A stretch of 64,000 nucleotides of DNA, taken from positions 1-64,000 of IMG/VR virus record IMGVR_UViG_3300036966_000119; one strand, given 5' to 3'. Positions within the stretch are counted from its first letter, which is position 1, and each line of letters begins with the position of its first letter. Of the stretch, positions 13,456 to 37,503 are shown one piece after another. Source of the DNA: a virus. Lineage: Duplodnaviria > Caudoviricetes. Position numbers and translations under genes: made by a program. The notes beneath the pieces were generated by a model, which made no database searches, was not told the origin of the DNA, and was given only the letters and a program-made list of their open reading frames with translations.

Positions 13456-14736
13456 ATGTCAGGATTGATATTTGATGAGCAATCATTAATAGATAAGCAA
13501 GTATACAAATATGATGAATATCTACATTCCCGTGTAAATAAATATACCGGTGCAGGAAGAATAATTGTTAAGTATTGGAATATTAATGAAGCCAATACAA
13601 CATCATCTCTTGGTATGGATACTCATTATAGAATACTTGGTCAAGATTCTCCATTAAGATATGATGAGATCGATAACATGGCCTTCATAGGATTCTCTCC
13701 TTTACAACCAGAAGAAAAACAAGCTTCTACTACAACCGTTAGAAACTATGGTTTATCTGGTGAAGCATTTGTTATTCCTGGTACTATAATGCCTAAGGAA
13801 AATGATTTCTTCATAGTAAAGCATCTTAATATGAATCATTTATTCCGTGTTACTCAAGTAACTCAGGACGGTTTAAATACCGATGGATCATATAAGATAA
13901 ACTACGAATTGTTCTCAACCAATCCTCAAGAGATAGAATGGTTGGGTAAACAAACTGTAGGTCACTATATAATGGATTTACAAACCATTGGTGGTGAAGA
14001 CCTCACGCCAGTAATAGGAAAAGAAGATCATGAATTACGTTCGCGTCTTGTTCGGATGGTGAACGATATGATTGAAAATTACAAAGCTCGATTTTATGAT
14101 GACACTCATAACTGTTTCTTGTTACATTTAAATGGTCGAACATTGTTTGATCTATGTGGTAACATGTTCATGGCTAAACATGGTGTTATGATCGTCGATA
14201 ATACATCCGGAAATATTGTTCTCAATCCAAATAAGATTCGTGATCCAAGAATGGATCAATTCTATCAAATGTCACCATACAAGTGGATTGAAAGAGATTC
14301 ACCAACTCGTTATATTGATACTTTCAAATATCGTATAATGAAAGGATATGATTATCCTGAATCATCATTTGCTATGTATGGTACAGATGTTGATATAATG
14401 ATTCCCAACCCAGCATGGTGTCAATCACCAAACTGCGAACCATTCTTCCCTGAAGAACTTGTTCAGATATTTGAGAATGAAGAGGATATTCGTGCATGTA
14501 AGATAAATGATTGTAAATGTTGTCCACATCGTAGTGATTGTCCGAGACACTACAAATGTCAACGATACGATTATGTATCTATTATACATGATTTCATTCA
14601 TGGAAAACTCACGGATATACATAAACTGTCTCTATATACTGGAGACCAGTTGTTTGATAATAATGATCACCAAGCAATATATCTGTGGAGTCCAATCATT
14701 ATATACATCATCAAACAAGTATTAAAAATTAAATAA
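13456..14736 (+). CDS. Probable virion structural protein with Cys-rich insert
   Basis: 426 aa; PGTIMPKENDFF.....LFRVT beta-barrel-like segment; C-x4-C-x-CC-x4-C cluster; AACC-gaacca-TAA upstream at 13389-13401. Confidence 0.55.
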   Translation: MSGLIFDEQSLIDKQVYKYDEYLHSRVNKYTGAGRIIVKYWNINEANTTSSLGMDTHYRILGQDSPLRYDEIDNMAFIGFSPLQPEEKQASTTTVRNYGLSGEAFVIPGTIMPKENDFFIVKHLNMNHLFRVTQVTQDGLNTDGSYKINYELFSTNPQEIEWLGKQTVGHYIMDLQTIGGEDLTPVIGKEDHELRSRLVRMVNDMIENYKARFYDDTHNCFLLHLNGRTLFDLCGNMFMAKHGVMIVDNTSGNIVLNPNKIRDPRMDQFYQMSPYKWIERDSPTRYIDTFKYRIMKGYDYPESSFAMYGTDVDIMIPNPAWCQSPNCEPFFPEELVQIFENEEDIRACKINDCKCCPHRSDCPRHYKCQRYDYVSIIHDFIHGKLTDIHKLSLYTGDQLFDNNDHQAIYLWSPIIIYIIKQVLKIK

Positions 14737-14752: not shown

Positions 14753-16282
14753 ATGAACATTACTAAATGTGGCGGTTGCACATTTGACGTGAATACGGAT
14801 CCATGCAAGTGCCCTATAGTTCCTCCGAACTATCCGTTCAATAGACCTGCTCGTGACTCATACACATTCTGTTGTTGTGGCCCATCAAATCCGTTGAATG
14901 GTAAAGATCCTGTTACATCAGCATATCCTTCATCGGGTATGTTTAAGGGTTCAGCATTTGCAATGTTTAATGGTAATCCATATATAATGGATTCTACCAA
15001 TATGAAATATGGACAGGTTCTTGTATATTCCGAGAATGTGTATACCAACGTATCCCAGCGTGATGATTTGTCATGCATAAACCTTGCTGCAAGATTCGAC
15101 ATGACTGATACATCATTAAGCAACACCGTTAGGAATGATTTCCTTAAGCAGTATATCTCAAGAAAGTATCTTGAATTAGAAAGTGTTTTACCTATAATAA
15201 AAACCGAATACAAGATACGTATACATTATACCATCAGAGATGTAGACGGTGGTACTATCAATTCAACACATGTCGATACAGACATAAAGGATTCTTATTT
15301 CCATTTTACTGATATCAAAGATAGATTTGTTCAGTCTCTTAAGGGCCTTGTTGTTGCAACAATTCCTGCAATTACTTACCAGGGATTATACAACATCACA
15401 ATCGACAGAGTTGAGCTTATCGTCCAGATAATAAATACAAAGGAACATCTCGTTGATGCAATGAATCCTTTCTATACGTTCGTCAATAACAATGCTGAAA
15501 TAGTTCTTCACAATGATATTATCGAACCAACTGAAAAGGATTCAACATTGGTTATTGCGACATGCGATGTTAATCGTTCATTCGATTATCAAGCAAACAT
15601 AACCAACAGACTCCGTATATCATTTACTGCATTTACATCTGTGCCGATTGCATGTGGTGATACAATGGGTATATGGAATGCATTGAATGAACCAACAGAT
15701 GCTGTTATAGCTCAGCTGAGAAATGAAGTAACAGCACTTGAAGATGAGGTTGCTGCACTTCATGCGAAAGATGATGAACTCCAGGCAGAGATAGATTCTC
15801 TCAGCGGACAGGTTGAACTTAATAAGAACAACATTGCATCACTGACGACAAGAGTAATGACACTTGAATCAGCAAACGCTGTCAAGGATACATTACTCAC
15901 AGAAATTATCTCTCGTATTGAGACACTTGAACGTATACCTCTCGCTCTTGTTTCTTATGCTGAAGGAGTTAATTTCATTAAGTCACAGATTACATGGAGA
16001 GGTTATGGTGAACTTTATCAGGTTACACGTAACTTCACTGCATCGGGTGACTTCATGATGGATGTTGGTCTTGGTTACCTTGTTCCTGTCATTAAGGATT
16101 CATCTGAATATCAGGGTATACTTAATAGAGTATCAGAAGTAGAAGAGACTGCAACTGGTGCTACTGAAGAAGCGCATGCTGCAACAGAAGCAGTATCATC
16201 ATTGTCAACGATTGTTGATGGTCATTCAACAGCTATCGGTCAATTAACAACTGATGTTAATGAATTAAAAGGCAATCATTAA
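14753..16282 (+). CDS. Probable structural protein with C-terminal coiled coils
   Basis: 509 aa, heptad-rich segments (LRNEVTALEDEVAAL...), operonic with upstream gene. Confidence 0.6.
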   Translation: MNITKCGGCTFDVNTDPCKCPIVPPNYPFNRPARDSYTFCCCGPSNPLNGKDPVTSAYPSSGMFKGSAFAMFNGNPYIMDSTNMKYGQVLVYSENVYTNVSQRDDLSCINLAARFDMTDTSLSNTVRNDFLKQYISRKYLELESVLPIIKTEYKIRIHYTIRDVDGGTINSTHVDTDIKDSYFHFTDIKDRFVQSLKGLVVATIPAITYQGLYNITIDRVELIVQIINTKEHLVDAMNPFYTFVNNNAEIVLHNDIIEPTEKDSTLVIATCDVNRSFDYQANITNRLRISFTAFTSVPIACGDTMGIWNALNEPTDAVIAQLRNEVTALEDEVAALHAKDDELQAEIDSLSGQVELNKNNIASLTTRVMTLESANAVKDTLLTEIISRIETLERIPLALVSYAEGVNFIKSQITWRGYGELYQVTRNFTASGDFMMDVGLGYLVPVIKDSSEYQGILNRVSEVEETATGATEEAHAATEAVSSLSTIVDGHSTAIGQLTTDVNELKGNH

Positions 16283-16349: not shown

Positions 16350-16375
16350 GATCTTTATAGAAAGGAATGAAATGT

Positions 16376-16912
16376 ATGGCACACACAATACAAATAGATG
16401 TTCGTGATTTAACTGTACCTGAAGCAAATCACGTTAACATAGCCGTTATAAATAAACCTAATCCTGTATTAGATTATTCTGCTACTGCCAGAGAAGTGTA
16501 TCTTCTTATGCAAATGAGTAATTACAGAATTACTGCTGCTGGTACTAATAAGACTATATCAGGAATTAATTATTATGATTACTTCCCTGAAGAACAGCCC
16601 GGTGGTGGAGGTGGTGTAACACCTCAACAAGTAGAAGCAATGATCGCCAATTCTATTGATGCTACTGTATCAGGAACATCAAAAAACTCTATTCAGAATA
16701 AGGCTATAAAGCAATATGTTGATACGGGATTATCTGGCAAGGCATCAACATCAACATTATCCCCAGTTGCAACATCTGGATCATACGATGATCTGTCTAA
16801 TAAACCAACGATCGATTCTGAATTATCAGATTCATCAACCAATGCGGTTCAGAATAAAGTAATCACTGGAACCATTGGTGACATCAATACCGTATTGGAA
16901 GGAGTGTTATAA
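16376..16912 (+). CDS. Tail-fibre/adaptor-like protein preceding the LRR genes
   Basis: Gly-rich linker, two ID..(V/L)S..S.N..QNK.I motifs and VATSGSYDDL, typical of phage fibre repeats. Confidence 0.6.
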   Translation: MAHTIQIDVRDLTVPEANHVNIAVINKPNPVLDYSATAREVYLLMQMSNYRITAAGTNKTISGINYYDYFPEEQPGGGGGVTPQQVEAMIANSIDATVSGTSKNSIQNKAIKQYVDTGLSGKASTSTLSPVATSGSYDDLSNKPTIDSELSDSSTNAVQNKVITGTIGDINTVLEGVL

Positions 16913-16930
16913 TATGCCAAATACATTAGC
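16832..16930 (+). repeat. 99-bp exact direct repeat, copy 1
   Basis: Identical to 21833-21931; covers adaptor 3' end, RBS and first five codons of the LRR gene. Confidence 0.95.
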
Positions 16931-18953
16931 TGAAAATCTCGCTAGATTGCAAGCTGCTAAAACTGCAATTGCTAATGCTATTACTGCTAAAGGTGGTACG
17001 GTTGGAAGTGGTGACGGTTTAGAAGAGTTTCCGACTGATATTAGCACTATATCAACTGGTGTTGACCCAGAACCTATTAATGCAGTTTTAGAGGAATCTA
17101 ATGGTGATTTAGAAACTGCATTAGGTGGAGGTTCATCACCTGTTGTAGCAAAAGGAACTGTTAATTTCTATGATTACGATGGTACTATTGTAAAAAGTAT
17201 GTCAAGTGCTCAGTTTAGAAGTCTTGAAAGTATGCCTGATAATCCTACTCATGAAGGATTAATCTCACAAGGATGGAACTGGGATCTGTCAGCTGCTAAA
17301 ACATATGTAGCTGAATACGGGTCATTAAATATTGGACAGCAGTATATAACTTCCGATGGAAAGACTCGAATCTATATTACTCTCACTGAAGGTAGAATCT
17401 CTCCTATTTTACAATTATATCTTAATGCTAACAGTGAACTTGATATTGACTGGGGCGACGACGGAGCTCATAGTACATTTACTACTACAAATGCTGATTA
17501 CAAAAGTGAAAGACATAATTATGCAACTGATGGAGATTATGTAATTGCTATAACAGTAACAACTGGCAGTTTCATATTACAATCTTCTTCCACAACAGTG
17601 TCAACAATATTATGGAATGAAAATAATAATGCAAATTCACCTGATAGAGCCTATAATAATTCTATTCAAAAAATTGAAATTGGTACAGGAGTTACTACTA
17701 TTGGTACTTATGCTTTCTACAATTGTTATTCATTATCATCAATAACAATACCTGATGGAGTTACTACTATTGGTGGTGGTGCTTTCAACGGTTGTTATTC
17801 ATTACAATCTATTACAATACCTGATTCAGTTACTACTATTGGTACTTATGCTTTCTATCAATGTTATTCATTACAATCTATTACTATTCCTGATGGAGAT
17901 ACACGTATTGGTCAATATGCTTTCTCGCGTTGTTCTTCATTATCATCAATAACAATACCTAATACAGTTACAAGTATTGGTCCTTTTTCTTTCCAGTATT
18001 GTTATTCATTATCATCAATAACAATACCTGATGGAGTTACAAGTATTGGTACTTATGCTTTCAGTAGTTGTTCTTCATTATCATCTATTACAATAGGAAA
18101 TTCAGTTACAAGTATTGGTAATTATGCTTTCAGTGGTTGTTCTTCATTATCATCAATAACAATACCTGATGGAGTTACTACTATTGATGGTGGTGCTTTC
18201 TATCAATGTTATTCATTATCATCTATTACAATAGGAAATTCAGTTACAAGTATTGGTCAATATGCTTTCAGTGGTTGTTCTTCATTATCATCTATTACAA
18301 TACCTAATACAGTTACAAGTATTGGTCCTTTTTCTTTCCAGTATTGTTATTCATTATCATCAATAACAATACCTGATGGAGTTACAAGTATTGGTAATTA
18401 TGCTTTCTCGCGTTGTTCTTCATTATCATCTATTACAATAGGAAATTCAGTTACAAGTATTGGTGGTAATGCTTTCAGTAGTTGTTATTCATTATCATCT
18501 ATTACAATACCTGATGGAGTTACTAGTATTGGTAATAGTGCTTTCTCGCTTTGTTATTCATTATCATCTGTAACAATACCTAATACAGTTACAAGTATTG
18601 ATGATAATGCTTTCAACGGTTGTTCATACATGGAGTCAATCAAGTTCACATCAGCAACTCCACCAACGGTTTCAAGTAGTAGTGCATGGACAGGAGTACC
18701 AACATCATGTATTATATATGTCCCTGCATTAGTTGCTAATAAATATATGAATGGAACTAATTATCCATCAAAATCCACTTATACATATATAGGATATGCA
18801 ACATATGAATCTGGTATTACATTACCTGATAAAACTACTGATGAAACATATACTCTTACATGGTATGCTAATGTAGAAGATGCTAAAGCTGGTACTAATC
18901 CTATTACTACTGGTAATGGTAGTGAAGTATATGCCATTGCTACTGTAATATGA
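16914..18953 (+). CDS. BspA-type (LRR_5) leucine-rich repeat protein 1, putative receptor-binding/adhesion protein
   Basis: 14 tandem 23-aa repeats IP.GVT.IG..AF..C.SLSSIT; PKD-like IDWGD segment; ATG at 16914 after GGAAGGAG. Confidence 0.9.
   Translation: MPNTLAENLARLQAAKTAIANAITAKGGTVGSGDGLEEFPTDISTISTGVDPEPINAVLEESNGDLETALGGGSSPVVAKGTVNFYDYDGTIVKSMSSAQFRSLESMPDNPTHEGLISQGWNWDLSAAKTYVAEYGSLNIGQQYITSDGKTRIYITLTEGRISPILQLYLNANSELDIDWGDDGAHSTFTTTNADYKSERHNYATDGDYVIAITVTTGSFILQSSSTTVSTILWNENNNANSPDRAYNNSIQKIEIGTGVTTIGTYAFYNCYSLSSITIPDGVTTIGGGAFNGCYSLQSITIPDSVTTIGTYAFYQCYSLQSITIPDGDTRIGQYAFSRCSSLSSITIPNTVTSIGPFSFQYCYSLSSITIPDGVTSIGTYAFSSCSSLSSITIGNSVTSIGNYAFSGCSSLSSITIPDGVTTIDGGAFYQCYSLSSITIGNSVTSIGQYAFSGCSSLSSITIPNTVTSIGPFSFQYCYSLSSITIPDGVTSIGNYAFSRCSSLSSITIGNSVTSIGGNAFSSCYSLSSITIPDGVTSIGNSAFSLCYSLSSVTIPNTVTSIDDNAFNGCSYMESIKFTSATPPTVSSSSAWTGVPTSCIIYVPALVANKYMNGTNYPSKSTYTYIGYATYESGITLPDKTTDETYTLTWYANVEDAKAGTNPITTGNGSEVYAIATVI
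17682..18647 (+). repeat. 14 x 69-bp coding repeats (LRR1)
   Basis: Constant anchors TTCATTA.CATC and GTTAC.A.TATTG with swapped variable modules. Confidence 0.95.
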
Positions 18954-18968
18954 AAGGAGTGAAATTAA

Positions 18969-20873
18969 ATGGCTGATTTACAAACAAATTTACAACGTTT
19001 AGAAAATAATAGCGATGAAATATTATCTCTTGTTGATGATATATCAGATGCTATTGTAGCCAAAGGTGGTACTGTTCCTGCTAATACAGGATTACGTGGT
19101 TTTGTTAATGCTATTAATAGTATTCCAAGTGGTGGCGGTGGAGGAAGTCACCCCCGAAAAGATGTAAATTTCTATGACTATGATGGTACTGTTGTACAAT
19201 CATATTCTGCGACTGATTTTGCTAATCTTACAGCACTTCCTGCAAATCCTTCACATATAGGATTAACATCACAAGGATGGAACTGGAGTTTGGCTGATGC
19301 TAAGAGTTATGTGGCTGATTACGGTTCTTTGAACGTTGGTCAGATGTACATAACATCTGATGGTAAGACAAGGCTTTATATTAGTCTCCCCGAAGGGAGA
19401 ACATCACCTATATTACAATTATATCTTAATGACAATTCGGAGTTAGATATTGACTGGGGAGATGATGGAACTCATTCTACATTTACTACTACAAGTGCTG
19501 AATATAAAAGTGAGAGACATGAGTATTCTTCATCTGGTGATTATGTAATCGCTATTACTGTTGTAAATGGTGGATTTGCATTACAATCTTCTTCCACAAC
19601 AGTGTCAACAATATTATGGAATGGAAATAATAATGAAAATTCACCTGATAAAGCTTACAATAATACGATTAAGAAGATTGAAATAGGCGGTGGTGTAACT
19701 AGTATTGGTAATTATGCTTTCAAAGGTTGTTCTTCATTATCATCAATAACAATACCTGATGGAGTTACTACTATTGGTGGTAATGCTTTCTTGCTTTGTT
19801 ATTCATTATCATCTATTACTATTCCTGATACAGTTACAAGTATTGGTACTTTTACTTTCTATCAATGTTATTCATTATCATCTATTGCAATACCTGATAG
19901 AGTTACTACTATTGGTGGTAATGCTTTCACGCGTTGTTCTTCATTATCATCTATTACAATACCTGATGGAGTTACAAGTATTGGTCAATATGCTTTCTAT
20001 AATTGTTATTCATTATCATCTATTGCAATACCTGATTCAGTTACTAGTATTGGTAATAGTGCTTTCTCGCTTTGTTATTCATTATCATCTGTAACAATAC
20101 CTAATACAGTTACAAGTATTGGTGGTAATGCTTTCCAGTATTGTTATTCATTATCATCAATAACAATACCTGATGGAGTTACAAGTATTGGTCAATATGC
20201 TTTCTATCAATGTTATTCATTATCATCTATTACAATAGGAAATTCAGTTACTACTATTGGTAATAATGCTTTCCAGTATTGTTATTCATTATCATCAATA
20301 ACAATACCTGATGGAGTTACAAGTATTGGTAATAGTGCTTTCTATCAATGTTATTCATTATCATCTATCACAATACCTGATGGAGTTACTACTATTGGTG
20401 GTAATGCTTTCTATCAATGTTATTCATTATCATCTATTACTATTCCTGATACAGTTACAAGTATTGGTACTTTTACTTTCTATCAATGTTATTCATTATC
20501 ATCTATTGCAATACCTGATTCAGTTACTACTATTGGTAATAGTGCTTTCTTGCTTTGTTATTCATTATCATCTGTAACAATACCTAATACAGTTACAAGT
20601 ATTGATGATAATGCTTTTCGGTATTGTTCTTCATTATCATCTGTAACAATACCTGATTCTACTACAAGTATTGGTAATGAAACTTTCAGTATGTGTGAAT
20701 ACATGGAATCAATCAAGTTCACATCAGCAACTCCACCAACGGTTTCAAGTAGTAGTGCATGGTACAAACTTCCAACATCGTGCACCATATATGTACCATC
20801 AGGATCTCTTAATGCATATAAAACAGCAACCAATTATCCAAATCCATCCACATACACATACGTGGAATATTAA
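18969..20873 (+). CDS. BspA-type LRR protein 2
   Basis: 15 tandem 23-aa repeats; same architecture as LRR1 (NFYDYDGT, SQGWNW, IDWGDDG). Confidence 0.9.
   Translation: MADLQTNLQRLENNSDEILSLVDDISDAIVAKGGTVPANTGLRGFVNAINSIPSGGGGGSHPRKDVNFYDYDGTVVQSYSATDFANLTALPANPSHIGLTSQGWNWSLADAKSYVADYGSLNVGQMYITSDGKTRLYISLPEGRTSPILQLYLNDNSELDIDWGDDGTHSTFTTTSAEYKSERHEYSSSGDYVIAITVVNGGFALQSSSTTVSTILWNGNNNENSPDKAYNNTIKKIEIGGGVTSIGNYAFKGCSSLSSITIPDGVTTIGGNAFLLCYSLSSITIPDTVTSIGTFTFYQCYSLSSIAIPDRVTTIGGNAFTRCSSLSSITIPDGVTSIGQYAFYNCYSLSSIAIPDSVTSIGNSAFSLCYSLSSVTIPNTVTSIGGNAFQYCYSLSSITIPDGVTSIGQYAFYQCYSLSSITIGNSVTTIGNNAFQYCYSLSSITIPDGVTSIGNSAFYQCYSLSSITIPDGVTTIGGNAFYQCYSLSSITIPDTVTSIGTFTFYQCYSLSSIAIPDSVTTIGNSAFLLCYSLSSVTIPNTVTSIDDNAFRYCSSLSSVTIPDSTTSIGNETFSMCEYMESIKFTSATPPTVSSSSAWYKLPTSCTIYVPSGSLNAYKTATNYPNPSTYTYVEY
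19686..20720 (+). repeat. 15 x 69-bp coding repeats (LRR2)
   Basis: Same anchors and modules as the LRR1 array. Confidence 0.95.
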
Positions 20874-20893: not shown

Positions 20894-21136
20894 ATGATCA
20901 TAGTTGAAATTGTTGATGATGGTACAAGAGAAAGAAGATATTCAGACAAAGGAGTTAAACTTCGTCAAATTGAAACAGGTAATATTTATGATGATGCTGT
21001 GGATGTAATTCCATGTAAGTATACATATGAAGAAACCGATGAACCTGTTGACCCAGAGCCTGAAATACCTGAAGAACCAGACGTACCACCAATACTTGGT
21101 ATGCCACCAATGGACATTCCACCGTTAACTTTATAA
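20894..21136 (+). CDS. Small fibre-associated protein (possible chaperone)
   Basis: 80 aa, RRYSD.G..L.Q..TG..Y..A.D....Y.YEET, Pro/Glu tail, RBS, follows LRR2. Confidence 0.6.
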   Translation: MIIVEIVDDGTRERRYSDKGVKLRQIETGNIYDDAVDVIPCKYTYEETDEPVDPEPEIPEEPDVPPILGMPPMDIPPLTL

Positions 21137-21143
21137 AAAAGAC

Positions 21144-21164
21144 TGCGGGGCGTAATGCCCCGCA
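21144..21164. terminator. Bidirectional terminator closing the LRR1-LRR2 operon
   Basis: TGCGGGGC-gtaat-GCCCCGCA between convergent genes. Confidence 0.8.
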
Positions 21165-21175
21165 CATGTCTTCTT

Positions 21176-21340
21176 TTACTCTAATACAACGAACATGCAA
21201 CCTGCATATACGAAAATTGAGGCTGTAGTTTCGATCATTGATCTCACTGAACGAGTTTCCTCTAATCTCTGTTCAGCAAGTATTGCGAATATTCCCCATA
21301 TTAAAGCAATCACACCGAACATGATTCGTTTAACGATCAT
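21176..21340 (-). CDS. Small membrane protein (54 aa, two hydrophobic segments); not in the ORF track
   Basis: MIVKRIMFGVIALIWGIFAILAEQR...IFVYAGCMFVVLE*; ATGA overlap with upstream stop, GGAGG RBS. Confidence 0.65.
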   Translation of the reverse strand: MIVKRIMFGVIALIWGIFAILAEQRLEETRSVRSMIETTASIFVYAGCMFVVLE

Positions 21341-21843
21341 TCATCATCACCTCCGTTGATGATTTCATAAATTTTATTGTATTCCATGGTCACCATGTTC
21401 TTTATGAATCGGGACATACCGGGCTTCTCTTTGCCGTCTTCCCATTCATTATCCATCCATGATGGATAATCAGGCTCAATGCAATTCTCAATGATCCAAT
21501 CAAGTCTGTAACATTTACCCAGTGAACACACTGGTGCTACATTGATGCACCGTGTTGGATCGTGATAATACAGCATCTTTGAATCATCGTTGCGATGCAT
21601 GTGTCCATGGATGTTGTAGAGATTATCGAACTCTGTTACCTCAATTGACGTATGTGAGAATATGAAGACTCTGTCATCAACTTTTGCAATTGCTGCGTAA
21701 CATACTGAAAAGCCTTCAATCTCAAGCATGTTATCAGCAAGCATATCATTGTTACCGCGAATCCAGATCTTTTCAACATTTTCTGGGAAGAGAGTTCTGA
21801 TGAGACCAACGGTTCTTTCATCCGGTATTGTATCATCAACCAA
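21337..21843 (-). pseudogene. 5'-truncated calcineurin-like metallophosphoesterase
   Basis: Retains GNND, FSH and HGHMH motifs but lacks the N-terminal DxH and GD motifs; the phosphoesterase-like sequence begins at the 99-bp repeat junction (LVDD). Confidence 0.75.
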
Positions 21844-21931
21844 TGCGGTTCAGAATAAAGTAATCACTGGAACCATTGGTGACATCAATACCGTATTGGA
21901 AGGAGTGTTATAATATGCCAAATACATTAGC
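21833..21931 (+). repeat. 99-bp exact direct repeat, copy 2
   Basis: Identical to 16832-16930, offset 5001 bp. Confidence 0.95.
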
Positions 21932-24458
21932 GGATAATTTACAAAGATTGAAAGATTCACGAACCTCAATCGGCAATGCTATCATCGCCAAAGGCGGTAC
22001 TGTTAATGCTGGCGATGGCTTTGAGGACTTTCCTGCTGATATCAGTACTATTCCATCCGGAGGTTCTTCAACATTAATTCCAAAAACAATCACTACAAAT
22101 GGAACATACGATCCTTCAGATGATAATGCGGATGGATATTCATCCGTTGTTGCAAACGTTCCCAATACATATGTTGCTGGGGACGAAGGTAAAGTTGTTA
22201 ATAATGGAACTCTTGTTGCTCAAACAGCAATGCCTAATGAAATAACAGTTAATGACACATATGATACAACTCTCTATGATAGTATCACAGTAAACGTTCC
22301 TTCATCACCAACTCCTACACCGACACCCAAACCAGGACTCGTTAGGTTCATGGATTATGATGGTACAATACTTCATACATACACTGCTAATGAGTTTCTT
22401 GCTCTTTCCGCAATGCCAGAAAATCCAACTCATGAAGGATTGACTTCTCAGGGATGGAACTGGTCATTTGAAGATGCAGTTGCATATGTTACAACCAACA
22501 GAAATCTCGACATCGGTCAGTCTTATGTTACTAATGATGGACGTACAAGAATCTATATCTCTCTCGAAAATCCGGATTTAATAAGTCCGACACTCGGACT
22601 TTATTTGGGAGGCAACTCATCGGTTGATGTTGATTGGGGTGATGGCTCTGAACATGAGACAATGACAAGGGATACTGGTTATTCTGGTAAAGTGACAGCA
22701 CAACATACATATCCATCAGTAGGAAATTATGTTATATCATTTGCTGTAATTAAGGGAACCTGTTCAATAGGCGGCTCATCCACACAATCGCATCTATTAA
22801 CCGATAACAAAACATCTTCCTTATCAAATGATGCTGCTTATATGTTATCAATAAAGAAAGTTGAAATTGGTAATGATATGTCATCCGTCAATGATAACGC
22901 TTTTAGAGAACTGCGATCATTAGAAACAATCACATTACCTGTGAATTTTTATGATTTCCATGCATGCACATTTCAGAACTGTTATTCATTGAAAGCTGTT
23001 GTTATTCCAAAAAATTCATCTTTCACAATAGGTCAAAAAGGTTATGTTTTTCATAATTGTCAATCATTGACCAACGTTTCATTATCCAAGGAATCTTATA
23101 TCTGTGGATATATGTTCGTCAACTGTTACAATTTGACCAGAATTACAATACCACTTGGAAGAACGATGATCGGTGATGGATCATCAGGCTATAATTCCAG
23201 TTCATTCAATTCATGTTATAACCTGTCGGATGTAACAATTCCTGAAGGAATAACTGATATAAATAATGCAACATTCTATCAATGTAATCTTATAGGTGAA
23301 TTAGAATTACCCGCGTCACTAACGAGTATTGGTATTAGTGCTTTCTATAACTGTCGTAATCTCAATTCAGTAGTGTTTGAAAATGGAACATCAGATCTTA
23401 CTATCGGTAGTTTAGCTTTCAGTGGTTGTGCAGCTCTTGATACCATAAAATTACCAACTAATCTCAAAACAATTGGATCCAATGGTTTCACTGGATGTTC
23501 ATCACTTAAAGAAATGGATATTCCTGATAGTGTAACATCAATAGGAGCAGAATTATGCAAAGATTGTGGTTCGCTGGTATCCATCAAAATAGGATCTGGT
23601 ATAGCAACATTACCATCAGGCTGTTTCAGAAGTTGCATTTCACTTACCGCAGTAGATATTCCAGTAACAGTAAAGACTATGAATGAACGTGTTTTTTGCG
23701 ACTGTAAAACTCTTAAAACAATAACTTTGCATGACGGATTACAAGAAATAACTGGAGGCAGTGTTTTCGAAAATTGTCAGTCTCTTGAATCAATTGAATT
23801 TCCAGATTCAGTTACTACAATTAACGGAGGTTCACTGCTTTCAGGATGTACAATATTGAAACATGCAAAGCTTCCTAAATCGTTAACAACTTTTAATCCA
23901 GGATATACTTTCAACCATTGTTATCTCCTCACATCATTCACAATTCCAGAAACTATAGCAACAACACCAACATCGTTTAACGGTATATTTGGTGATTGCT
24001 GGAGTCTTACCAGTATTGACATTCCTTCTTGGCTTACAACAATCGGCTCAAGTGCAATTTCAGCCTGTTACAGTTTAACCGAGTTAACGATTCCCTCAAC
24101 TGTAACATTGATTGATCAATATGGAATTAGTAGCCCCGGTGCTTTGAAACGACTGAGATTTGTTTCATCAAATCCTCCAACAGTGAAATCTGCTTCATTA
24201 TCATCAATACCGACTGATTGTGCTATATTAGTTCCATATGGAGCATTGACAGCTTATACCACTGCATCGTATTATCCAAATCCTTCAACTTATTCTTATA
24301 TTGAATATGCTACATATCCAAGCGGTGACACATTACCGGATTCAGATACTGAGTACAGTTTAACATGGTATGCAACCATTGATGATTGGAGAAATGAAAC
24401 AAATCAAATTACGGTAGGAAATGGAGGAGAGATATATGTTAAACGAGTCGCTTTATAA
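21915..24458 (+). CDS. BspA-type LRR protein 3 (divergent repeats)
   Basis: Same N-terminus (MPNTLA.NL.RL), FMDYDGT, SQGWNW, VDWGDG and C-cap as LRR1 but LRR units are highly diverged. Confidence 0.85.
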   Translation: MPNTLADNLQRLKDSRTSIGNAIIAKGGTVNAGDGFEDFPADISTIPSGGSSTLIPKTITTNGTYDPSDDNADGYSSVVANVPNTYVAGDEGKVVNNGTLVAQTAMPNEITVNDTYDTTLYDSITVNVPSSPTPTPTPKPGLVRFMDYDGTILHTYTANEFLALSAMPENPTHEGLTSQGWNWSFEDAVAYVTTNRNLDIGQSYVTNDGRTRIYISLENPDLISPTLGLYLGGNSSVDVDWGDGSEHETMTRDTGYSGKVTAQHTYPSVGNYVISFAVIKGTCSIGGSSTQSHLLTDNKTSSLSNDAAYMLSIKKVEIGNDMSSVNDNAFRELRSLETITLPVNFYDFHACTFQNCYSLKAVVIPKNSSFTIGQKGYVFHNCQSLTNVSLSKESYICGYMFVNCYNLTRITIPLGRTMIGDGSSGYNSSSFNSCYNLSDVTIPEGITDINNATFYQCNLIGELELPASLTSIGISAFYNCRNLNSVVFENGTSDLTIGSLAFSGCAALDTIKLPTNLKTIGSNGFTGCSSLKEMDIPDSVTSIGAELCKDCGSLVSIKIGSGIATLPSGCFRSCISLTAVDIPVTVKTMNERVFCDCKTLKTITLHDGLQEITGGSVFENCQSLESIEFPDSVTTINGGSLLSGCTILKHAKLPKSLTTFNPGYTFNHCYLLTSFTIPETIATTPTSFNGIFGDCWSLTSIDIPSWLTTIGSSAISACYSLTELTIPSTVTLIDQYGISSPGALKRLRFVSSNPPTVKSASLSSIPTDCAILVPYGALTAYTTASYYPNPSTYSYIEYATYPSGDTLPDSDTEYSLTWYATIDDWRNETNQITVGNGGEIYVKRVAL

Positions 24459-30046: not shown

Positions 30047-32389
30047 ATGCCTAACAATGATTCGCATCAACATGTTGTGAAGACATCTGCACAATGGAAT
30101 GAGCGTGCCGTTGAATATTGGATCGTACCTCGCGGATGTTTGTGCATTGAATTGACACCAGATGGCAAAACCAAAATAAAAATTGGTGAAGGCAATAAAT
30201 ATTATGCACAACTTCCATACATAACAAGTGAAGCCGATCTTACTCAATACTACACAAAAGAAGAAATCAATATTCTATTTGAAAATTTAAATAGAATGGC
30301 AATAATGTCAACGGATGAGTATGATGACAAAGAGGAATTACCATTAGATGGTAATAAACTCGGTGATGTGAGATTTGTTAAATCATCATCTCCGTCTATA
30401 AAAATAGATCCAGATATTTATCTTTGGAATGGCACAAAGTGGATATTTGTTGGATATGAATTCAAGGATGTTGATCTTTCTAAATATTTAAAGAAAGAAG
30501 AATTCCATGAATTATTTGATCCTGTCAAAGAAAAAGTTGATGAGATGTATCCGAAGATGCATACTCATTCAAATAAAGAAGTCCTTGATCAGATTACTGC
30601 ACCATTTACTATACCAGAAAAAGAAAAACTTGCTGGACTGGAAAACTATGATGATACAGAGATTCGTGAATTAATTCATGAATCATCACACACACATGAC
30701 AACAAAGATATCCTTGACACAATAACATCAGATAGCTTATGGTCTCAAACCGACAGAAATAAGTTCAATAATCTTCATAATTATGATGATGGACCTATAA
30801 CTGAAAGAGTTGCAGACCTCGAAGATAAGGCACACACTCACACCAATAAAGAATTTCTTGATACTATTGCGATGCCGTATCAGATATGGTCACAAGAAGA
30901 TCGTGAGAAATTTGATTCATTAAGTAATCCGGAAGTATTCATTGGTACAGATGGACAATATCCTGGTCGTAAAGGACTTGTTCCTGCGCCTACAATAACG
31001 GATATTGGTAAGTTCTTATCATCATCAGGTCACTGGTTGTCCATTGAGGGTAGTACTGATTTCGTTGGTGCTACTGCTGATACAGGTGGCGTACATGGTC
31101 TTGTTCCTGCACCTATGGCTGGACAAAATACATATTTCTTAAGAGGTGATGGAACCTGGGCTGAAGTCAGTGGTGGAGGTGGATCACACTATACCTTCCG
31201 TGAAGGATCAACCGCTGGATCATTCCAAGTTAAAGAAGACGATGGTGAATGGCAAACTATTGCCATTCATTCAGTACCAACTCTTGGCACTAACGGTAAG
31301 ATATTAGAAACATATCTCCCATCATATGTTGACGACGTTGTCGAAGGTTACTATTACAATGGTATGTTTTATACAACATCAGAACATACAACAGAAATAC
31401 CTGCTGAAACTGGAAAGATATACGTTGACCTCCTATCTAATACAACATATCGTTGGGGTGGAACAACATATGTTCCAATATTAAACCCCGTTGATATTAT
31501 GAGAGGTGCTACAGCTTCTACAGACGGCGTTGCAGGTTTGGTTCCCGCTCCAGCAGGATCACAAAACATGTTTTTGCGTGGAGATGGCACATGGGCAACT
31601 GTTTCAACAACAGATATTAACGCTCGTCAGGCACTTGATACCTCAAACAAGAACTATCCTCTTTTGTTCTCATATGCTGAAACATCTTCTACAACAGCAA
31701 ACATTGATAATATTACCAGACGTAATAATTCAATATATGTAAATCCGTCAACTGGTACTATTACTGCAACAAACTTCGCTGGTACTTTGAATAGTATGAC
31801 GATCAGTGGTACTTCTGGTTCTACCTATAATCTTAATAATATTACCAAAGTTGAGGCATCGTCTACAAATGGAAAGATCAAGATAAATGATATTGATACA
31901 ACGGTATATACACACCCAGCATATACAGCAAAAACTTCAGGTTTGTATAAAGTGACTGTAGATACAACAGGACATGTTTCTGAGGCAACAGCTGTTGCTA
32001 AAGCGGACATTACAGCTTTGGGTATTCCAGCAGTTGAGGCATCGTCTACAAATGGAAAGATCAAGATAAATGATATTGATACAACGGTATATACACACCC
32101 AGCATATACAGCAAAAACTTCAGGTTTGTATAAAGTGACTGTAGATACAACAGGACATGTTTCTGAGGCAACAGCTGTTGCTAAAGCGGACATTACAGCT
32201 TTGGGTATTCCAGCACAAGACACATGGGTTGACATGACAGCGGCAACTGCATCAGCATCTGGTACTCGTGGTACTGTTCAACCACCCGCTGGAGCACAGA
32301 CAAAGTATCTTCGTGGTGACAACACATGGGTTGATCCAATTGATGATATTGGTATACTCACGTTGCATTGTACAAATGGTACAGATTGA
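30047..32389 (+). CDS. Tail-fibre-like protein
   Basis: N-terminal Mtd_N/hyaluronidase-like motif (K.KIGEG...Y..LPY), H.H.NK..LD repeats, GLVPAP...LRGDGTW repeats. Confidence 0.75.
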   Translation: MPNNDSHQHVVKTSAQWNERAVEYWIVPRGCLCIELTPDGKTKIKIGEGNKYYAQLPYITSEADLTQYYTKEEINILFENLNRMAIMSTDEYDDKEELPLDGNKLGDVRFVKSSSPSIKIDPDIYLWNGTKWIFVGYEFKDVDLSKYLKKEEFHELFDPVKEKVDEMYPKMHTHSNKEVLDQITAPFTIPEKEKLAGLENYDDTEIRELIHESSHTHDNKDILDTITSDSLWSQTDRNKFNNLHNYDDGPITERVADLEDKAHTHTNKEFLDTIAMPYQIWSQEDREKFDSLSNPEVFIGTDGQYPGRKGLVPAPTITDIGKFLSSSGHWLSIEGSTDFVGATADTGGVHGLVPAPMAGQNTYFLRGDGTWAEVSGGGGSHYTFREGSTAGSFQVKEDDGEWQTIAIHSVPTLGTNGKILETYLPSYVDDVVEGYYYNGMFYTTSEHTTEIPAETGKIYVDLLSNTTYRWGGTTYVPILNPVDIMRGATASTDGVAGLVPAPAGSQNMFLRGDGTWATVSTTDINARQALDTSNKNYPLLFSYAETSSTTANIDNITRRNNSIYVNPSTGTITATNFAGTLNSMTISGTSGSTYNLNNITKVEASSTNGKIKINDIDTTVYTHPAYTAKTSGLYKVTVDTTGHVSEATAVAKADITALGIPAVEASSTNGKIKINDIDTTVYTHPAYTAKTSGLYKVTVDTTGHVSEATAVAKADITALGIPAQDTWVDMTAATASASGTRGTVQPPAGAQTKYLRGDNTWVDPIDDIGILTLHCTNGTD
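31849..32215 (+). repeat. Exact 183-bp (61-aa) in-frame tandem duplication
   Basis: VEASSTNGKIKIND...ITALGIPA present twice with identical DNA. Confidence 0.95.
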
Positions 32390-36388: not shown

Positions 36389-37503
36389 TATCTCTCCCCC
36401 TCTCTAAACATTCCTGCTATGTCGGATGTGTAGTCATTGACTATCTGTGATATGAAATCGTATCCGATATCACATCCGAAAGTATTCTTTACGACATTGG
36501 ATATCTTCTTGACATCATTAGCCTTGTTGATGCCAATAACATCCATTGCCATAAATACTGTTATGACCTTCTCATCCAAAGATAAAGCATCACCACGCTT
36601 TATCTTATCACGGATAAGTTCCCCAGTGAGTTTCTTATCACCGGACATTCTGAAGAAACCACCTACATCCATTCCCTGGTTTGCATCAGTATCCACAGCC
36701 ATTGCGTCTGTTCGTGGATATATCTTACCAGAGAGATTCACGAAGAACATATCCGATATTTCCGTGAATAACTTCTTATCTCTAATCTGTTCAACCGATG
36801 CTTTTGATACGGAAGGATATGCATCTTCATACAGTGGCATGATCTTTTCGATGTCGCCATCGTACTGTAAGATTCTGCGACATATGTCTTCGATCATGTA
36901 ACGTCGTGTCTCCACGTATTCTCCTGTCGGCTTCTTCCAGTAGATATTGTCTACCTTCAGATTGCGACGATCTCCATCTTTGAACTCAATGATGAAGTCC
37001 GAAGACCTATCGGGTGATCTAATTTGGAAAGCCTTTGCGACAAGAACAGCCACTCTTCTGGTGTCTCTGGATACATCTGATCCAAGAGAAATCCTCATGT
37101 CACCATCACGAAGATGCTGTTTCATGAGTTTCTTGGAATCAATGTTCCAGACATGACCATAGTTTGAGACCATGAGATTCATGTCTCTTACTTTACGCCA
37201 ATCGGCGTCTGGAGCCACAGCTAACCATGGCTCTTTATCTGAGACAGTCTTAATTACTTCAGTTGTCTCAGTTGTCTCAGTTGTCTCAGTTGTCTCAGTT
37301 GTCTCAGTTGTAGCAGTAGTAGGAATATCAACTTCAAATGTTACGTCGTTATTTATCCAACGATTCAGGAAGTCAATATTGTCTGCTAAATGAGGATTTA
37401 ATTCTCCGAGGATTATTAAATCACTCATGGGAACAGTCATGTCAATTTTACTCGTAAAGTCTTCAAGTACTTTACAAACTTTTATTGCTTGTTTTAGTTC
37501 CAT
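36388..37503 (-). CDS. Degenerate NUMOD4/HNH-derived protein, probably nuclease-dead
   Basis: MVSNYGHV, VAVLVAKAF, IIEFKDGDRRNLKVDNIYW (the His positions are A/F); one helical repeat; TTE repeat linker. Confidence 0.65.
   Translation of the reverse strand: MELKQAIKVCKVLEDFTSKIDMTVPMSDLIILGELNPHLADNIDFLNRWINNDVTFEVDIPTTATTETTETTETTETTETTEVIKTVSDKEPWLAVAPDADWRKVRDMNLMVSNYGHVWNIDSKKLMKQHLRDGDMRISLGSDVSRDTRRVAVLVAKAFQIRSPDRSSDFIIEFKDGDRRNLKVDNIYWKKPTGEYVETRRYMIEDICRRILQYDGDIEKIMPLYEDAYPSVSKASVEQIRDKKLFTEISDMFFVNLSGKIYPRTDAMAVDTDANQGMDVGGFFRMSGDKKLTGELIRDKIKRGDALSLDEKVITVFMAMDVIGINKANDVKKISNVVKNTFGCDIGYDFISQIVNDYTSDIAGMFREGER
37259..37311. repeat. 9-bp tandem repeat (TCAGTTGTC x5 plus 8 nt) encoding (TTE)n
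   Basis: Directly visible perfect repeat. Confidence 0.9.

Follow-up and report, generated by a model that had tools for sequence, protein, structure and literature searches.

The adjacent phage genes LRR1 and LRR2, which encode leucine-rich repeats (LRRs), carry tandem arrays of 69-bp units that have been reshuffled by recombination. The reshuffling is well supported, occurs in a large family of probable phage adhesins, and is of a known mechanistic kind. Both genes lie in the window analysed here, comprising bases 1-64000 of a linear virus record (IMG/VR IMGVR_UViG_3300036966_000119, hereafter G000) of 172,576 bp with an estimated completeness of 64%. G000 encodes an RNA polymerase beta subunit and a topoisomerase II, and its near-complete relatives measure 231-295 kb, which places it among the jumbo phages. 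Comparisons of assemblies reveal in-register crossover, loss and duplication of units, short conversion, gene fusion, and point mutation, and the LRR1-LRR2 cassette is present in two unrelated phages. We consider it probable that the two genes encode accessory virion binding proteins in a mobile cassette, with generic in-register recombination and diversifying selection together shaping an evolving binding stripe.

The repeat mosaic requires exchange within units

LRR1 contains 14 units beginning at position 17682 and LRR2 contains 15 beginning at 19686, with a period of 69 bp and in intact open reading frames, as a first-pass annotation of the window had reported. Mean unit identity is 81% within genes and also 81% between genes, and thus the two arrays behave as one pool. 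Two main slots, at codons 8-11 and 13-14, are each filled from 11 words among the 25 internal units. The words and combinations listed in that annotation (GQY with SR, SG, YN, and YQ; GNS with SL, YQ, and LL) are all present, and the 83-bp tract that it described as common to both genes (18518-18600 and 20039-20121) is exact. The independence of the slots, which it had proposed to examine, holds only in part. No linkage is detectable between the two main slots (p=0.47, with the low power afforded by 25 units), whereas adjacent slots do show linkage (codons 13-14 and 16, p=0.0014; codons 19-23 and positions 1-3 of the next unit, p=0.0002).

Among informative site pairs, 61% conflict with a single tree, and the share of incompatible pairs climbs with distance: it is approximately 30% up to 9 nt and 71-81% between 10 and 40 nt. 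A PHI-type test (pairwise homoplasy index) on the units gave p=0.0002. At the level of words, 27 conflicts were observed versus means of 5-11 in eight tree-only simulation settings, which exclude recombination and in which sites mutate independently; at realistic diversity, no such simulation generated as many distinct units from as small a set of words. Since simulations with mutation alone fail to yield the mosaic, we conclude that the mosaic is real and that its formation needs exchange inside units.

Arrays are rearranged among near-identical strains

A contig from a separate sample is 100% identical to the window over 14,040 bp, arrays included, and the misassembly that had been named as a possible refutation is therefore not borne out. 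The cassette also occurs in an unrelated phage, designated phage 2 (L053:8001-11960), where it is 97.5% identical to the window over 4 kb; the 17 kb surrounding that locus has no other protein in common with the jumbo phage. Additional contigs (L002, L039, L052, L055-L057, L059, and L060) hold the cassette in the same phage 2-type context. Phage 2 reads TAG as glutamine, as coding cover rises from 0.57-0.61 to 0.82-0.84 under this assignment. An in-frame TAG in unit 9 of phage 2 LRR1 would be a stop codon in the standard-code jumbo phage, and its reading as a stop in phage 2 was rejected on the basis of this code.

LRR2 is colinear between the window and phage 2 and differs by only 5 nt. In LRR1 there are 8 differences in the 768 nt of the N-terminal part, 82 in the 966 nt of the array, and 3 in the 306 nt of the C-terminal part, corresponding to a divergence of approximately 1% outside the array and 8.5% inside. 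When the allele in L039 is compared with the window, 51 of 61 changed codons already occur among the window's words in the matching register, where the random expectation is 17 and the maximum 27. In the L035 allele, the C-terminal part matches that of the window at 97% identity, yet all eight visible units are different.

Within phage 2, nine assemblies have flanks that are 99.9-100% identical (0-8 differences in up to 13 kb). Against this background LRR1 carries 7, 7, 10, 12, or 14 units, so that the comparison of related genomes suggested by the first-pass annotation does reveal changes in repeat number, and LRR2 has 15 units, has 8 units, or has been lost through fusion to LRR1. One fusion occurs at an 8-bp match in the C-cap and the other at a 35-bp match between the arrays. 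The identities at rearrangement junctions measure 8, 16, 25, and 35 bp, and five or more assemblies, representing two sources, share the fusion junction. Chimeric units are present among the phage 2 LRR1 alleles, and in full-length alleles a small conversion has copied a two-base word of unit 5 into unit 1 (proteins from two contigs). Most new units can be derived from donors within the array and at most a few point changes. Alleles with 14 units have 27 segregating sites in the 966-bp array versus 9 in 7,400 bp of flank (p=1e-18), a 23-fold difference in density, and 20 of their 24 changed codons are non-synonymous. The frame is open under the TAG=Gln code in all nine compared alleles. Off-register events are also seen, namely a TAA stop in unit 4 of the L035 LRR1 allele, a 24-residue unit 2 in L053, and a 22-residue unit 6 in L055.

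In a second jumbo phage, one pair of strains has identical arrays, and a third strain shows 2 differences in 4.5 kb followed by divergence from array unit 4 onward (the contig ends within the array). The ongoing recombination or conversion of sub-repeats that had been proposed, within and between the two genes and without reverse transcriptase, is seen among near-identical strains. This recombination is recent but episodic, because arrays are identical in two samples each of this phage and of a relative and because LRR2 is nearly unchanged across two phages.

The allele comparisons suggest that the cassette was transferred from the jumbo lineage to phage 2, since close alleles sit in jumbo-like contigs and phage 2 LRR1 carries the in-frame TAG. 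The near-identical cassette in a jumbo phage and an unrelated TAG=Gln phage also suggests a common host, which may be a gut-type member of the Firmicutes, as judged from two phage 2 genes, HPr-like and GH25, and from the origin of the weaker database matches. A proposed dockerin in a tail fibre of G000, which would have pointed to a host, gave no Pfam match. In phage 2 the cassette is positioned between the HPr-like gene and lysis genes; the former, encoding a protein similar to HPr of the phosphotransferase system, is directly upstream (L052:7169-7423). Bacterial genomes bearing the same DNA motif contained only diverged BspA genes, and no host donor was seen among them.

Variable codons are predicted to lie on one side of the solenoid

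LRR1 and LRR2 belong to the BspA/TpLRR (LRR_5) class, the solenoid identity originally assigned to them. Matches to PF13306 score 369.6 and 752.1 bits versus a cut-off of 27.7 (E 1e-112 to 1e-230), and AlphaFold2 (AF2) models give a TpLRR-type solenoid whose best structural matches are 4gt6, 4fs7, and 6mlx (for 6mlx, Z 13.4 with a root-mean-square deviation of 2.9 over 148 residues). Residues 1-86 of the N-terminal model were scarcely probed by the fold search.

Variation among units is concentrated at codons 9, 10, 13, and 14, where the proportions of non-synonymous (pN) and synonymous (pS) differences are 0.59 and 0.23, versus 0.11 and 0.15 elsewhere; pN exceeds pS at those codons alone. In 927 units of the wider family these four positions again vary most, with Tyr, Asn, Ser, Gly, and Gln prominent among their residues. 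The silent sites of anchor codons 3, 17, 18, and 19 are unchanged in 25/25 units, and slot codons differ by 2-3 non-synonymous nucleotides. Unit positions 17-23 are near-constant, and the main parallel strand in the models corresponds to positions 20-22, which are nearly always Ser, Ile, and Thr; we take this strand to be the concave face, as in LRR proteins generally. Because the variable positions 9, 10, 13, 14, and 16 fall within eight consecutive residues between conserved hydrophobic anchors, they would be expected to line up along a single side of the coil that is distinct from the canonical concave sheet.

Genomic context suggests display on the virion

Three LRR_5 genes, LRR1, LRR2, and the diverged LRR3, are located on the plus strand 3′ of a head-tail joining gene, and these are the only LRR_5 matches in the 172,576-bp record. 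The features of the locus are as follows.

13456..14736, plus strand: head-tail joining or virion structural gene (PF24214, phrog_3013), the left anchor of a hypervariable accessory region
14753..16282, plus strand: gene conserved next to the head-tail gene, on its 3′ side, and encoding a 509-residue protein whose C-terminal part is a coiled coil
16367..16912, plus strand: gene for a 181-residue protein, with an N-terminal domain that relatives carry as a fusion to LRR proteins; the 3′ end of the gene is inside the 99-bp repeat
16832..16930, plus strand: copy 1 of the 99-bp direct repeat, spanning the end of the upstream gene, the ribosome-binding region, and the start of LRR1
16914..18953, plus strand: LRR1, 679 residues, with an N-terminal helical anchor, a Flg_new-like and PKD-like domain, 14 LRR_5 units, a C-cap, and an extra C-terminal domain
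16914..17060, plus strand: N-terminal anchor of LRR1, common to LRR3 and to non-LRR tail-type proteins that include the target of a diversity-generating retroelement (DGR) in the relative G001
17142..17681, plus strand: conserved non-repeat domain of LRR1, with weak Flg_new and PKD_4 matches
17682..18647, plus strand: LRR1 array, 14 x 69 bp, with hypervariable codons 9, 10, 13, and 14 (also 3 and 16)
17952..18051, plus strand: 100-bp tract identical to 18297-18396, five units away
18518..18600, plus strand: 83-bp tract identical to 20039-20121 of LRR2, overlapping a 66-bp tract (18548-18613 = 20552-20617)
18969..20873, plus strand: LRR2, 634 residues, with the architecture of LRR1; 5 nt different from the phage 2 copy
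19686..20720, plus strand: LRR2 array, 15 x 69 bp, including a 102-bp duplication (19797-19898 = 20418-20519)
20894..21136, plus strand: gene for an 80-residue protein, also found 3′ of an LRR gene in a relative
21144-21164: terminator-like hairpin
21833..21931, plus strand: copy 2 of the 99-bp direct repeat, 5′ of LRR3
21915..24458, plus strand: LRR3, 847 residues, a diverged paralogue whose repeats are irregular and whose DNA vocabulary is not that of LRR1 and LRR2

The head-tail joining gene is kept in 14 related jumbo phages, among which the genes downstream of it differ; LRR genes are present there in only some of these phages. In one relative, the anchor, LRR_5 repeats, and phrog_5302 are fused in a single gene at the same locus. 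Protein P0016 (L061:7001-10069) joins an LRR array to a phrog_5302 tail domain at its C-terminus, the domain being of the type targeted by the DGR, and the ends of P0031 and P0034 are similar. The domain of approximately 180 residues that precedes the repeats, with its weak Flg_new and PKD-like matches, has approximately 1,200 homologues; nearly all of the 120 listed carry LRR_5, and many of these are on contigs of approximately 250 kb. The family consists mostly of phage proteins, and the top structural clusters are 50-100% viral, with one of them named as a putative tail protein. A search of the literature on phage or rumen LRR_5 proteins found no relevant description of this family, which is apparently undescribed. 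LRR1 and LRR2 are likely to be virion-displayed binding proteins, or putative adhesins, because their genes lie 3′ of the head-tail joining gene, because the anchor is also found in a DGR-targeted phrog_5302 tail protein, and because a homologue encoded at this locus combines LRR_5 with phrog_5302 and the top structural clusters are largely viral.

The 99-bp direct repeat is perfect and precedes both LRR1 and LRR3; a crossover between its copies would remove LRR1 and LRR2 and leave LRR3 behind the 181-residue gene. The phage 2 cassette junction falls within copy 1. A phosphoesterase-like gene on the minus strand (21337-21843) breaks the plus-strand run ahead of LRR3; a homologue occurs near the G001 LRR cluster (L010), and a Metallophos-annotated gene lies 3′ of the LRR gene in L054. 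A promoter scan gave matches no better than chance. Elsewhere in the window, a gene for a 780-residue protein on the plus strand contains a perfect 183-bp tandem duplication (31849-32215), and a gene for a 371-residue protein contains a 9-bp tandem repeat (37259-37317).

The arrays are not targets of the retroelement found in a relative

In G001, a DGR adjoins the downstream side of a cluster of three LRR genes (L027:3780-9421, approximately 152.8-158.4 kb). It comprises a 361-residue reverse transcriptase and a template repeat, and 21/21 mismatches occur at template adenines. Its target is the C-terminus of a 1351-residue phrog_5302 tail protein that begins with an LRR1-type anchor, and not the LRRs. 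That such an element mutates adenines in the repeats might be entertained from this proximity and from the retention of the third base in many slot codons. Silent adenines at codons 3, 17, 18, and 19 are nonetheless invariant in 25/25 units, and words recur letter for letter. Moreover, no reverse transcriptase was found in G000, which is 64% complete, or in five relatives with near-complete genomes, and the 172 kb of G000 sequence contains no LRR-like template copy outside the LRR genes. Adenine-directed mutagenesis of LRR1 and LRR2 is ruled out by the invariant silent adenines and by the match of the G001 template to another gene, and we assign this explanation a negligible probability.

Recombination and selection as the favoured explanation

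In the mechanism that we favour, units that are 81% identical recombine in register, as the assemblies show, and frame and fold survive such exchange because the 69-bp period is divisible by three. Unequal crossover gains or drops units, short conversions transfer single words among units and between LRR1 and LRR2, and crossovers join the two genes into fusions. Point mutation supplies new words, of which those at surface codons 9, 10, 13, and 14 may be retained by diversifying selection and then spread, with probable homogenisation of the anchors. The enzyme is presumably generic rather than dedicated: a recombinase of the host, a single-strand-annealing one of the phage, or template switching. 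The product may be a binding stripe that evolves and recognises a variable ligand on the bacterial surface, borne by LRR proteins that would occupy the genomic slot held in relatives by DGR-diversified tail proteins.

Several observations weigh against this explanation. Some deletions in the assemblies pass through identities of 64-100 bp, which an assembler could collapse. Because the repeats recombine and are saturated, the pN/pS comparison does not constitute a formal test of selection. Polymorphism in the N-terminal domain (8/699) likewise exceeds that of the flanks, and part of the signal therefore reflects whole-allele exchange. Length changes in phage 2 are mostly losses, as is also expected from neutral instability. 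A RecA search of the 64%-complete genome gave no match, and no recombinase was identified. Finally, virion location and binding are conjectured from genomic context and sequence.

The most serious competitor is neutral concerted evolution, in which the arrays recombine simply by virtue of being repeats and the variable codons, as surface positions free of constraint, play no adaptive part. Phage 2 shows mainly contractions and the loss of LRR2, a TAA stop interrupts the array of one allele, LRR genes are missing at this locus from most relatives and altogether from three near-complete genomes, and the same positions vary in bacterial BspA proteins. We nevertheless regard this explanation as unlikely, as the slot codons differ by 2-3 non-synonymous nucleotides against anchors whose silent sites are invariant in all 25 units, nine of nine compared phage 2 alleles keep an open frame under their own code, and the variable residues are of the binding-site type. 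Alternatively, the same recombination might act on proteins that work inside the infected cell, for example by binding variable defence proteins. Inspection by eye revealed no obvious signal peptide or membrane anchor, the phage 2 cassette lies between the HPr-like gene and lysis genes, and the virion location is inferred indirectly. The presence of the genes within a structural gene run, the anchor held in common with a tail protein, the fusion to a tail protein, and the extracellular-type PKD and Flg_new-like domains make an intracellular role improbable.

A programmed assembly, with a dedicated machinery that frequently draws sub-repeat words from a set of donor cassettes, would accommodate the small vocabulary, the free reassortment of the two main slots, and the short conversion tracts, and 36% of the genome is missing from the record. 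However, LRR1 and LRR2 are complete genes, and the 172 kb contains no LRR fragments beyond the three genes. Reshuffling continues in an unrelated phage, where donors within the array and a few point changes explain most new units, and arrays are identical across samples with LRR2 nearly static. We therefore view such assembly as very unlikely. Least credible of all, together with the retroelement, is the notion that the mosaic arose as an artefact of assembly. These metagenomic assemblies do contain repeats as long as 102 bp. Against this stand the fully identical independent contig, the colinearity of LRR2 in another phage, the recurrence of the fusion junction across two sources and at least five assemblies, and junctions of 8-16 bp, which are below usual assembler k-mers.

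Comparison with known systems

The mechanism is ordinary and has a published bacterial precedent, the closest being the tandem LRR locus of Flavobacterium psychrophilum, in which repeat number varies and repeats are reshuffled between strains (Altae-Tran et al. 2020, PMC10392669). Both loci contain tandem LRR genes whose repeat number and sequence vary between strains, here with conserved flanks, and both have hypervariable positions modelled on one side, short junction homologies, and reshuffling without mobility genes. The F. psychrophilum genes, which number up to 19, instead encode bacterial cell-surface proteins with a signal peptide and a type IX secretion signal, and broken gene fragments lie between them. 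The phage locus has two complete genes with a probable virion anchor, and its cassette moves between unrelated phages; the LRR genes present number three, all intact, and there are no fragments. The phage proteins share their 23-residue consensus and fold with BspA/TpLRR solenoids (PF13306; PDB 6mlx, 4fs7, 4gt6, 4cp6), from which they differ in their phage-specific N-terminal anchor and Flg_new/PKD-like domain and in their younger, more homogeneous units (approximately 80% DNA identity versus 57-67% in four of five bacterial examples). A BspA-type gene of Flavobacterium (L047:3804-5981) contains a perfectly duplicated four-unit block. Transcription activator-like (TAL) effectors, as discussed in PMC10392669, similarly combine near-identical repeats with few hypervariable residues and rearrange without a dedicated enzyme. 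Their fold and ligand are different, they have two variable positions versus four to five here, and the phage arrays give no evidence of a code of one repeat for one target.

The first-pass annotation had likened the arrays to the variable lymphocyte receptors (VLRs) of lampreys, a comparison already drawn for the F. psychrophilum locus (PMC10392669). VLRs are assembled from an incomplete germline gene and hundreds of donor cassettes with the aid of cytidine deaminases, and their binding surface is a hypervariable concave sheet (PMC12264053). The likeness extends to the LRR scaffold and to the use of short segments again in new combinations through conversion-like copying. LRR1 and LRR2, in contrast, are complete open reading frames that are identical in two samples, and no silent LRR donor cassettes were found in the 172 kb of G000, from which 36% of the genome is missing. 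There is no evidence of a dedicated VLR-type enzyme, in searches that covered reverse transcriptase and RecA. In the models, the hypervariable residues appear to lie off the concave strand, which is constant here, and consensus arrays are identical across samples, a comparison of assemblies that bears on any per-generation repertoire. The VLR-like framing is thus not upheld for genes that are complete, are without donor cassettes in the sequenced 172 kb, vary off the concave strand, and change episodically. DGR-diversified tail or receptor-binding proteins of the phrog_5302 type occupy the same genomic slot in relatives, share the N-terminal anchor, and are sometimes fused to an LRR domain, but no reverse transcriptase or template repeat acts on the LRRs, in which variation is spread over many repeats by recombination.

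Implications for phage receptor binding

Differences in host range among phages are usually explained by exchange of tail fibres, by invertases, or by DGRs. The family described here, of approximately 1,200 proteins, varies a probable binding surface through sub-repeat recombination, and the locus adds to the known cases an allelic series, the sharing of a cassette across genetic codes, and a side-by-side contrast with a DGR. The natural allelic series, with 7-14 units in a 99.9% identical background, makes function directly testable. A broader proposal, which we offer tentatively and think rather doubtful at present, is that these proteins represent a widespread class of phage receptor-binding proteins whose recombination-prone LRR array serves as a portable equivalent of a DGR that needs no reverse transcriptase. 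Selection for evolvability would then keep the 69-bp framework homogeneous, the variable stripe might set host specificity repeat by repeat, and the cassette may diversify after moves into unrelated phages, even across genetic codes.

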